Shown here: positions 45,001 through 48,000 of the stretch, piece after piece
How the letters are laid out: the number at the start of each line of letters is the position of its first letter
Position numbering within the stretch: the stretch's first letter is position 1
Position numbers: made by a program
Source: Escherichia coli O157:H7
Lineage (GTDB): Bacteria > Pseudomonadota > Gammaproteobacteria > Enterobacterales > Enterobacteriaceae
Assembly: GCF_013167455.1 (NCBI RefSeq)
Contig: NZ_CP038328.1
Strand: one strand, 5' to 3'
DNA: 64,000 bases

Positions 45001-48000
45001 AAGAATGCCTGGATCAGTGGTGGGATAAGTATGTTACTGATCTGAAACCCAATACACAGACGCTTTACAGATCCGTCGTGTACAACACTATGTACACACA
45101 GTTTGAAGGCTCGCCAGTTGCCAGTATCCCAGTATCGGCATGGGCTCGTTTCTTTGACAAACAAGAAAGCCTCAACAAGAAAAAGGCTCGTGTTTTGTTG
45201 TTACAACTGCGTTCAGTTATTAACTGGTGTATCAGCCGCCAGTTAATCCCATCATGCGAATTACTCAAGCTTAGTGTTAAGAATATTGGGAAAAAACCAG
45301 ATGTAGGGAGTCGTGTACTTACCTATACGGAACTGGCAAAAATTTGGCTGGCGCTGGAGAACTCAAAAGTAGTTACTTCCAACAAGGTGTTACATCAATT
45401 GCTATTGCTATGGGGGGCCAGACTTTCTGAGCTACGTCTCGCGACAGCCAGTGAGTTCAACATGGAAGATCTGGTCTGGACAACCCCAAAAGAGCATTCA
45501 AAAATGGGGAATATTATCCGGCGTCCGGTATTCACTCAGGTTAAACCTTATATCGAGAGATTGCTTAATGCGGGTTTTGATGTGCTATTCCCCGGGCAGG
45601 AAATAGATAAACCTATTGATCGTTCGTCGGCTAATTTGTACATGAAAAAGTTAAGGGAGAAAATTGATATTCCTGAATGGAGAACGCATGATTTTAGGCG
45701 TTCTCTGGTAACGAATTTATCTGGGGAAGGAATTATGCCCCACGTCACTGAAAAAATGCTGGGGCATGAACTTGGGGGAGTTATGGCCGTGTATAATAAA
45801 CACGACTGGTTGTCGGAACAGAAAGATGCGTATGAGTTGTATGCTGATAAAATTTTCTGGCACGCTAAACAACTCGGTTAATTCCTCCGGCTTTAAGCCA
45901 TTGTTCAACGGCCTGACGACTATATCGCGCCGGATGAGTAAGTACTGGTTCCGGGAATCCGTGTTTTTTTCGCAAATTATACAAAGCTGTGCGCCTTTTT
46001 TGTAACAAATCAGAAACCTCTTTTTCGGTCATTAAGTTGACTTCCATAGTATGCGCTCCTTTTCTACATGTATTTCAACAGCCTGATATCATCCACGCCC
46101 TAAAGGACGTGGATTCCCGCTACGTTCACTCTGACAATTCGTTGATCAAGTCACGGTATTTATTCAGTTCTTGCAACGCCTTACATGCACCCTCCCATCG
46201 TTTCTGTTTCCGCCCGGCGCGGCGCGCTTCTTTCCGTGATTTACGTAGCAGGTCGCCTATAATGTTGTGCTGCACTGGCTGCACTGGCTGCACTGGCTGC
46301 ACTGGCTGCACTGGCTGCACTGGCTGCACTGGCTGCACTGGCTGCACTGGCTGCACTGAGGCGATATTTGGTTTTTTGTCCACTTCCCTTGCAACTGCCT
46401 GCCAGATGCCATTTTTTACAGTTACTACCCCCTGGTTTTTTAACTTCCATAGAGTGTCAATAACGTCATTCAAATCAATATTGAGACCTTTAGAAATACT
46501 TTCGGCTGATGCTTTTCCTAATTTGTTCAATTCTGTGAGCACTGCGTTCGTTTTTTTCTCCTGATATTTTAATGTCGGTGGGGCTGTTATACGGTTGGTG
46601 AGGTGTCAGCTTCTTCTACCAGCTTTTCCAGTTCATCCAGCTTTCGGGAAAGAATTTCACCAAACAGATGAAGTTCTGCATCTGCTGTAATCGGGATTGG
46701 AACAAATCGTATTCCACTTCTGGCAAGTTGATTTGCGATTTCCAGACACTGCCTTAATTCAACTGGTGATGCCTTTGTCAACGTCGTTTTTTCGCTCATT
46801 GGTTTTCTCCAGAAATTTAACAATACCCGGAACCATCTCAATGGATGGTGTGCCGCATTGGTTACCCCATACATCAAATCCATGCGAGGTGTGGCGGGCG
46901 AACAGTTCTATCCGGGGAACATCGCCAAGAAGTTGCACAAGTTTTTCTCGAGCCATATCCGGCTTGCGGGAGTGATCAAGGCGTGGTGCAGTGAATGACT
47001 GGATTATTCCGGCGTTAATGCGTTCGGGCAGATTTCCTTTCACTGCAAAAAGGCAGTCTTCGCTGTTAGCGCGAGTGGTGCTACCCATACCCATGACCAG
47101 CTTGTCGGTCTGTCTTTTCCCGCATTTGTTCCAGGTTAATCCTTTCATCGTCACCAGACGAAAGCCCCACGCTTCTACAACCTTCAATGCTTCAAGTGGT
47201 TGTGTAGGCACCCACCACATAGCCAACAGGCAATTCTCGGCTGCCAGTTCCCATACCGGGAGGCGGCAGATATCCAGAAGACTCATGACCGGATATTTAA
47301 AACTTGCACCGCGTTGACCATCGGTTGCTTTGTCGCGGAATGTCCAGGGGGGATCTGCGTAAATGAGGGTGTATTTTTTCGTCATAGCGCGTTTTCAAAC
47401 TCATCAATGTAAAGTCCTGCTTTAATCAGTCGGCGACGGCGTTCGGCCTTTTGCACGTATTCCTCGCGACAGTTTTTTGCTGCGTGTTCACGGCTTCTGC
47501 GACTGAATGGAGGAACGGCATTGCGTGAGCGAGGTGTGTCACGACGAGGATTTGATTCGAGGGAGAAAAAGCGATCAACGATTCCGGTGTCTGTGGTGAA
47601 TGGTTCTGAAGCCTTTATTTTCACAACCTTACTGCCCTTTGTCAGGCCGCGAGCTACCTTGTTGAACTCGCAAAGTGAAACACCAAATTTCTCTGCTATT
47701 TCACTGCCAGTAACAGGACGACCACGAGACTGAATCATCCAAGTGACGCGTTCTTTTAACCCACGGAAGGCACCGGGCCTTCCAGAACGCCTGTAGAAAG
47801 CGATCTGTTTCAAATTTTTGTCTCCAGATATGAAAACCCCGACGGGATGTCGGGGATGGTAGGGGAAGTTACAGGCTTAACGAGAAGCCTTTTCGGGAAT
47901 TTCGATCTGACAATCTTGAAATATCCTGTAGCGTGCGGCGCATTTCTTCCGTCAGATGCTTGAAGGCGTTAAATTCGGCGACAGCGGCGTCAACGTTATA

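Follow-up and report, generated by a model that had tools for sequence, protein, structure and literature searches.

An MT-A70 family methyltransferase gene in a Stx2a-type prophage of Escherichia coli O157:H7 encodes the probable catalytic partner of PNB-2 in an rRNA-preferring enzyme

The closest described relative of the gene analyzed here is the adenine methyltransferase of the Shiga toxin (Stx) phage PA8, which Gong, Chakraborty & Koudelka (NAR 2023; PMC10810198) characterized together with a small partner protein, PNB-2; no rRNA methyltransferase encoded by a prophage is reported to have been described before it. The purified methyltransferase alone gave background signal on DNA, including dam-/dcm- DNA; with PNB-2 it co-purified and was cross-linked 1:1 as a holoenzyme, and PNB-2 sets its substrate preference (PMC10810198). 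Consumption of S-adenosylmethionine (SAM) by the holoenzyme was >13-fold faster on RNA than on DNA; 16S rRNA was favored over 23S rRNA, and 30S over 50S subunits (PMC10810198). Phage PA2, which carries IS629 in the methyltransferase gene, showed less spontaneous induction and less amoeba killing; a plasmid copy complemented this induction and virulence defect while a DPPW→APPA mutant did not, and the methyltransferase/PNB-2 pair is reported to raise spontaneous prophage induction and virulence (PMC10810198). A preprint (10.1101/2023.09.20.558713) adds that deletion of both subunits lowers induction and virulence, that extracts of enzyme-expressing strains withstand Stx-mediated inactivation, and that nanopore signals change at 16S positions 832, 1098, 1100, 1132, and 1190. 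Here, we describe the MT-A70 family methyltransferase gene at 46759-47385 (minus strand) of a 64,000-nucleotide stretch of E. coli O157:H7 (contig NZ_CP038328.1; the whole stretch is called the window), whose product is almost certainly the orthologue of PA8 gp5 with its partner present. The gene is not new; it is an already studied Stx-phage adenine methyltransferase. Its family, its identity to characterized proteins, its gene architecture, and the conservation of the pair were computed here, whereas the complex, the RNA preference, and the phenotype come from the literature.

Over all 208 residues, the window protein agrees with PA8 (KP682374) gp5, M.EcoPA8orf6770P, at 207/208 positions, the sole difference being conservative (E50 in the window, D50 in PA8 gp5), and the open reading frame (ORF) at 47382-47813 is identical to PA8 gp6, which is PNB-2, at 143/143 positions. 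The two loci also share their gene order, an ATGA overlap between the two genes, and a place beside the integrase of a Stx2a-type phage, and the published terminator between PA8 gp7 and gp6 (PMC10810198) is identical in sequence to a hairpin of the window. They differ in the gene upstream of this terminator, which is mosaic in the window and encodes an AntA N-terminal domain. The window protein has the C-terminal 27 amino acids that a shorter variant, found outside the E. coli that produce Shiga toxin (STEC), is said to lack (PMC10810198). At the DNA level, the methyltransferase gene is 100% identical to that of many Stx2a phages, among them Shigella phage Ss-VASD, Lyz12581Vzw, and Escherichia phage P13771 (HG792104, source Homo sapiens), where it is the "methylase" ORF07; 167 phage records match the gene, and at least 1000 contigs encode precisely this protein. 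The 6 kb from 43000 to 49000 are likewise 100% identical to the chromosomes of the E. coli O157:H7 strains ECP19-598 and G5295.

The methyltransferase gene begins with ATG and encodes 208 amino acids starting MTKKYTLIYADPPWTF. Pfam MT-A70 (PF05063) matches residues 5-176 across the full profile (positions 1-172/172) with E=1.3e-22 and 81 bits, compared with a cut-off of 23.9 bits. PHROG 359, "DNA methyltransferase," matches at E=2.8e-117 and PADLOC MTase_II at E=8.8e-86, the latter label reflecting methyltransferase homology and nothing further; NCBIfam contains no model that matches the methyltransferase, PNB-2, or the neighboring DUF1382 protein. The NCBI Prokaryotic Genome Annotation Pipeline (PGAP) names the product "MT-A70 family methyltransferase" (WP_000163448.1) in strain ECP19-598. 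Motif IV, defined for class-beta enzymes as (D/N/S)PP(Y/F/W) (PMC7544214), is read directly from the codons GAT CCC CCC TGG at 47344-47355 (minus strand), which encode DPPW at residues 11-14, N-terminal to the SAM-binding region as in the class-beta order. Across an alignment of 25 homologues there is no variation at L7, I8, A10, P12, or W14 and almost none at D11 or P13; the ORF is intact and retains every invariant family residue. A second conserved region, ELFAR...WGNQ (residues 160-176), aligns with the IFAR of MTA1. The profile match, motif IV in class-beta order, and the predicted fold all place the protein in the MT-A70 family, and the ORF is confirmed as a genuine gene, well beyond chance. 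Judged from sequence, the DPPW motif and the family membership together imply N6-adenine chemistry. An earlier note on the window had recognized an MT-A70 family gene with DPPW at this position, near the integrase end of the prophage, and both statements hold, the 3' end of the gene lying 878 bp from the integrase end (45881).

The PNB-2 gene (47382-47813, minus strand), assigned by its identity to PA8 gp6, starts with TTG and encodes 143 amino acids of a predicted winged-helix partner subunit. No Pfam family scores above cut-off for it, and its match in PHROG is family 1680, of unknown function. Its AlphaFold2 (AF2) model contains a confident winged-helix core (residues 19-90) and a long helix (residues 105-131), and in a Foldseek search this model resembled the winged helices of TFE-alpha, MarR, and ArsR only weakly (best E=8e-3), a result that supports a predicted winged-helix fold class and nothing more specific. 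The stop codon of PNB-2 and the start codon of the methyltransferase share the ATGA at 47382-47385 (minus strand; from coordinates and sequence), suggesting translational coupling of the two genes. On the other side, an intrinsic-terminator-like hairpin, CCCCGACATCCCGTCGGGG followed by TTTT (47837-47855, minus strand), stands between PNB-2 and the Ant-like gene and separates the two-gene unit from that upstream gene; a promoter scan from the terminator to the PNB-2 start gave no convincing sigma-70 site. The earlier note had called the methyltransferase an orphan, a term that remains apt in that no nuclease adjoins it and misleading in that the enzyme is not stand-alone, PNB-2 lying directly upstream.

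We also looked for fusions of PNB-2 with MT-A70, because the match to the PHROG 359 profile (329 positions) starts only at position 118, a sign that family members may be extended at the N-terminus. Two candidates were set aside: the 141-amino-acid protein P0170, which joins a PNB-2 N-terminus to an MT-A70 C-terminus, is an apparent deletion product of an L004-type cluster and not evidence of fusion, and the 297-amino-acid protein P0010 has a PerC-like N-terminus. The 151-amino-acid protein directly upstream of MT-A70 in locus L004 was considered as a diverged PNB-2 and rejected, as it has no similarity to PNB-2.

Membership of the PNB-2/MT-A70 unit in a type II restriction-modification or defense system was rejected because neither the unit nor its flanks contain a nuclease. 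Within ~5 kb, searches with Pfam, PHROG, and PADLOC found no nuclease domain among the neighbors (DUF1382, DUF1627, HTH_17, PNB-2, AntA, and DUF551), in agreement with the earlier note. The sole restriction endonuclease in this prophage arm is of the PstI/BsuBI type (59296-60249, minus strand; Pfam PF06616 and PF17728, PADLOC REase_II) and lies ~12 kb from the MT-A70 gene together with its own Eco57I-type methylase (60246-61715, minus strand; Pfam PF07669, PADLOC MTase_II). This complete restriction-modification pair (59296-61715) occupies the early-left region of the prophage, beside a cI-like repressor gene at 61810-62523, and is not the partner of the MT-A70 gene.

To place the pair in a comparative setting, 87 loci encoding a PNB-2-family protein were collected and their downstream genes classified. 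They comprise a near-identical Stx-phage clade (25 loci) and a diverged clade (62 loci, PNB-2 53-60% identical); the loci are not phylogenetically independent, and the counts are therefore descriptive only. MT-A70 stands directly 3' of PNB-2 with the 4-nt ATGA overlap in 25/25 loci of the near-identical clade, and a 219-amino-acid MT-A70 protein follows directly with the identical 4-nt overlap in 35/62 loci of the diverged clade, where PNB-2 and MT-A70 are ~54% and ~45% identical, respectively, to the window proteins. This diverged pair is present in Klebsiella, Enterobacter, Salmonella, Citrobacter, and Raoultella. Because the order PNB-2 → MT-A70 and the overlap are kept across ~50% divergence, they provide independent support for a joint function; the conserved gene order agrees with the published co-purification, and it supports the pairing, not the substrate.

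The remaining diverged loci are more varied. A Dam protein (PF05869) directly follows PNB-2 in 4/62 loci, and in 16/62 a 55-amino-acid ORF separates PNB-2 from varying sets of DndB-like, Dam, MT-A70, or N6_N4 methylase genes. Counted over the 3.3 kb downstream of PNB-2, 45 loci of this clade have MT-A70 and 10 have Dam; C5 DNA methylases often follow MT-A70, with overlapping genes. The loci with Dam in place of MT-A70 belong to prophages of Klebsiella and other Enterobacterales (L008-L010, L042, L043, L047, L048, L056, L059, and L069), some have a 4-nt PNB-2/Dam overlap, and one (L048) encodes a 721-amino-acid C5-methylase/Dam fusion downstream of PNB-2. Two further loci (L075 and L085, both at 4029-4580) carry an ORF of homing-endonuclease type, with HNH_3 and AP2 domains, in the MT-A70 slot after PNB-2, which may have inserted into or replaced the methyltransferase gene. 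The modest new contribution of this work is this comparative picture, namely the two-gene module in non-Stx prophages and the pairing of PNB-2 with Dam-type methylases, both of which bear on the substrate question.

A natural variant of the arrangement is seen in E. coli O157:H7 F7386 (L091), which at the same argW site has a methyltransferase gene 98.6% identical at the DNA level and no PNB-2. Its similarity to the window extends only ~30 nt upstream from the methyltransferase start; a 55-amino-acid ORF and a 226-nt gap lie upstream. This methyltransferase-only variant could be used to test the dependence on PNB-2.

A family profile built from 25 homologues was compared with the PDB and retrieved MTA1/AMT1 (5e-18), METTL3 (6e-12), a METTL4-type chain (7cv6; 1e-9), and METTL14 (1e-4). 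The AF2 model of the methyltransferase (predicted local distance difference test, 76.5; predicted template-modeling score, 0.78; last 13 residues disordered) has a predicted MT-A70/Rossmann-like methyltransferase fold, and Foldseek aligned it with METTL3 (template-modeling score, TM, ~0.65) and MTA1 (TM ~0.63), with probability 1.00. Fold similarity was tried as a discriminator between RNA and DNA substrates and fails in this role, as METTL3 and MTA1 score about equally; since both superpose about equally, the likeness to eukaryotic MT-A70 proteins is no argument for RNA over DNA.

Based on these comparisons and on the published biochemistry, which we weight above gene neighborhood in mosaic phages, we consider that the window ORF probably encodes the catalytic subunit of the published two-subunit, 16S rRNA-preferring MT-A70/PNB-2 methyltransferase of Stx2a phages. 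The protein would be a small class-beta SAM-dependent N6-adenine methyltransferase, with DPPW near its N-terminus and ELFAR...WGNQ toward its C-terminus, that lacks a target-recognition domain of its own. One message would serve for both PNB-2 and the methyltransferase, with translation passing through the ATGA overlap, and the products would assemble into a 1:1 holoenzyme, as indicated by biochemistry on proteins that are 99.5% and 100% identical to those of the window. Its preferred substrate would be host 16S rRNA, as reported for the PA8 holoenzyme, and the outcome would be more spontaneous prophage induction, hence more Shiga toxin and greater virulence, again as reported. We infer that the PA8-type complex, RNA preference, and phenotype extend to the E50 variant of this strain.

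Several observations weigh against this assignment. The rRNA claim derives from a SAM-consumption assay in which the modified base or atom was not determined (PMC10810198), and the nanopore contrast of the preprint is between MG1655 and a whole-phage lysogen, with no methyltransferase knockout (10.1101/2023.09.20.558713). By sequence, the nearest relative with a solved structure, ciliate MTA1, is a DNA N6-methyladenine (6mA) methyltransferase, and over-produced M.EcoGV, an enzyme described as highly similar to that of PA8, methylates GATC in vivo without PNB-2, according to the account of Fang 2012 given in PMC10810198. PNB-2 homologues also directly precede PF05869 Dam and other DNA methylases, and prophages of Klebsiella, Enterobacter, and Salmonella that lack Stx carry the two-gene module as well, from which it follows that an Stx-specific ribosome protection cannot be the general role of the family. 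Finally, the two-gene unit matches 257/5426 complete E. coli genomes, only 131 of these 257 cover at least 80% of it, and the other matching genomes lack PNB-2 (with a different upstream region) or have partial, disrupted copies.

A possibility that we hold to be rather unlikely is that the protein is primarily a DNA N6-adenine methyltransferase, either GATC-specific or relaxed, with PNB-2 as a DNA-binding adaptor or regulator and the 16S activity as a side reaction. It accords with the REBASE-type annotations and with the in vivo GATC methylation by over-produced M.EcoGV as relayed by PMC10810198 and PMC6602927, with the best solved sequence relatives, MTA1/AMT1, being DNA 6mA enzymes that likewise need DNA-binding partner subunits, and with the predicted winged-helix fold of PNB-2, which is typical of DNA binders. 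PNB-2 genes moreover head apparent DNA-modification cassettes (Dam, N6_N4_Mtase, C5 methylase, C5-Dam fusion, and DndB-like), and as the family also precedes an unrelated family of DNA adenine methylases, a DNA-directed or dual function stays live; such neighborhoods in mosaic lambdoid phages are, however, weak functional evidence. Against a DNA enzyme stand the in vitro results on PA8, in which dam-/dcm- DNA gave no more than background signal with the methyltransferase alone and the activity of the holoenzyme on DNA was >13-fold below that on RNA (PMC10810198). The methylomes of lysogens give a similar answer: O111 STEC with M.EcoGV-type copies yielded only GATC and CTGCAG by single-molecule real-time (SMRT) sequencing, with no extra motif (PMC6602927), though Dam, by which the host already methylates GATC, would mask methylation of that site. 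The biological corollary of a DNA enzyme, that phage DNA is methylated as it replicates lytically and so escapes host restriction, or that host DNA methylation is altered, also appears doubtful to us. It is in essence the proposal of the earlier note, which named protection of phage DNA or a changed epigenetic state of the host; the substrate reported is 16S rRNA, and the demonstrated phenotype is one of induction and virulence, not anti-restriction (PMC10810198). The same note anticipated a new N6-methyladenine motif in the lysogen; none emerged from the related O111 lysogens, and since the only reported DNA specificity is GATC, already methylated by Dam, no new motif is expected even if the enzyme acts on DNA.

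An intermediate case is that the holoenzyme methylates 16S rRNA in the lysogen and also DNA, whether as single strands or as phage DNA that is replicating. The authors of PMC10810198 themselves raise this possibility, both DNA and RNA are substrates of the class-beta enzymes METTL3-METTL14 and M.EcoGII (PMC7544214), and the predicted fold is equally near METTL3 and MTA1; the weak DNA activity in vitro (PMC10810198) counts against it, and we judge it distinctly unlikely. That the gene is a silent or decaying passenger in this strain seems highly improbable. Related STEC prophage methyltransferases are often not detectably active (PMC6602927), and IS-disrupted and truncated copies exist (P0002 and partial matches in E. 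coli genomes); on the other hand, the ORF of the window is intact and keeps every invariant residue of the family, the exact protein is widespread, divergent clades have conserved both the two-gene unit and its overlap, and in PA8 the phenotype is lost when the active site is mutated (PMC10810198). Taken together, we continue to favor the 16S rRNA-preferring MT-A70/PNB-2 holoenzyme. The comparative data do lead us to a broader conjecture, offered with more doubt than conviction, that PNB-2-family winged-helix proteins are interchangeable targeting or regulatory subunits for unrelated small adenine methyltransferases, mostly MT-A70 and elsewhere PF05869 Dam, and that these genes lead a variable cassette for DNA modification in Enterobacterales prophages. 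If this were true, the physiological substrate would be DNA, or DNA and rRNA; the 16S rRNA assignment would be incomplete, and the Stx ribosome-protection model would fail to explain the family.

The gene matters for STEC in that a near-identical enzyme, that of PA8, raises spontaneous Stx-prophage induction and virulence together with PNB-2. The results also indicate that the lack of a nuclease beside a DPPW/MT-A70 gene is no ground for presuming an anti-restriction DNA methylase, and that the small upstream neighbor of the gene belongs to the unit.

The host element is a Stx2a-type prophage integrated at argW in E. coli O157:H7. Its left end adjoins a tRNA-Arg(CCT) gene (44442-44516, minus strand; tRNA search and annotation), which we take to be argW. 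This tRNA is bracketed by two tyrosine integrase genes (43123-45881), intS (43123-44316, minus strand; Pfam and annotation) and the Stx-type prophage integrase (44712-45881, plus strand; Pfam Phage_integrase and Arm-DNA-bind_3, start per PGAP on the identical region), and two mobile elements therefore share the locus. On the minus strand, the order toward the integrase is Ant-like gene, terminator, PNB-2, methyltransferase, DUF1382, DUF1627, and an HTH_17 excisionase-like gene (45865-46047, minus strand; Pfam/PHROG). The DUF1382 gene (46587-46799, minus strand; ORF, Pfam, and annotation) encodes 70 amino acids from an ATG at 46799, and its start overlaps the final 41 nt of the methyltransferase gene. 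The DUF1627 gene (46126-46542, minus strand; Pfam) contains, at 46269-46358, ten perfect tandem copies of the 9-bp unit GCTGCACTG that encode a QPV/PVQ run; the gene measures 417 nt in the window and 372 nt in ECP19-598, which is 45 nt shorter, and from this difference the copy number of GCTGCACTG appears to vary between strains.

Upstream of the terminator, the Ant-like gene (ORF at 47869-48660, minus strand; Pfam) encodes an antirepressor with an AntA N-terminal domain whose C-terminal 103 amino acids are 93% identical to PA8 PNB-1; as its N-terminal domain differs from that of PNB-1, this is a mosaic gene. The Ant N-terminus recurs as a truncated second copy at 48748-49062, a pseudogene per PGAP in the identical strain. 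Farther along the same leftward operon, a PAPS-reductase-domain protein is encoded at 51961-52839 (minus strand), and in locus L041 a larger PAPS_reduct protein sits between PNB-2 and MT-A70; proteins of this kind near PNB-2/MT-A70 hint at a further nucleic-acid-modification function.

Beyond PA8, the known systems nearest to the window enzyme include two enzymes of O104:H4. M.EcoGV (strain C227-11; a REBASE entry) is "highly similar" to M.EcoPA8orf6770P in the words of PMC10810198 and is listed as a GATC DNA methyltransferase, a specificity which, as cited from Fang 2012 in PMC10810198 and PMC6602927, comes from plasmid over-expression without PNB-2; its equivalence to the window gene is taken from these two citing papers. 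M.EcoGII, compared by description only, is likewise a prophage class-beta adenine methyltransferase without a nuclease partner and accepts DNA and RNA (PMC5778455, PMC7544214), but it is a distinct enzyme, solo and non-specific, that the literature treats apart from M.EcoGV. Among eukaryotic complexes, the best solved sequence match is the ciliate MTA1c (MTA1 with MTA9, p1, and p2; PDB 7F4L, 7YI8, and 8XYL), of which Tetrahymena MTA1/AMT1 is the catalytic subunit (PMC9174199). It shares with the phage enzyme the MT-A70 fold, a DPPW-type motif, a C-terminal (E/I)FAR motif, and a catalytic subunit that needs partners; it differs in being a four-subunit complex that methylates ApT in DNA, with ~22-24% identity in structural alignments and partner subunits unrelated in sequence to PNB-2. 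Human METTL3-METTL14, which forms N6-methyladenosine in mRNA, gives the top Foldseek matches (E ~2e-12) and also combines DPPW with a partner-dependent catalytic subunit. Its identity to the window protein is ~20-22%, and it is partnered by METTL14, a degenerate MT-A70 paralogue; the phage enzyme, in contrast, is a bare 208-amino-acid catalytic domain whose partner is a predicted winged-helix protein.

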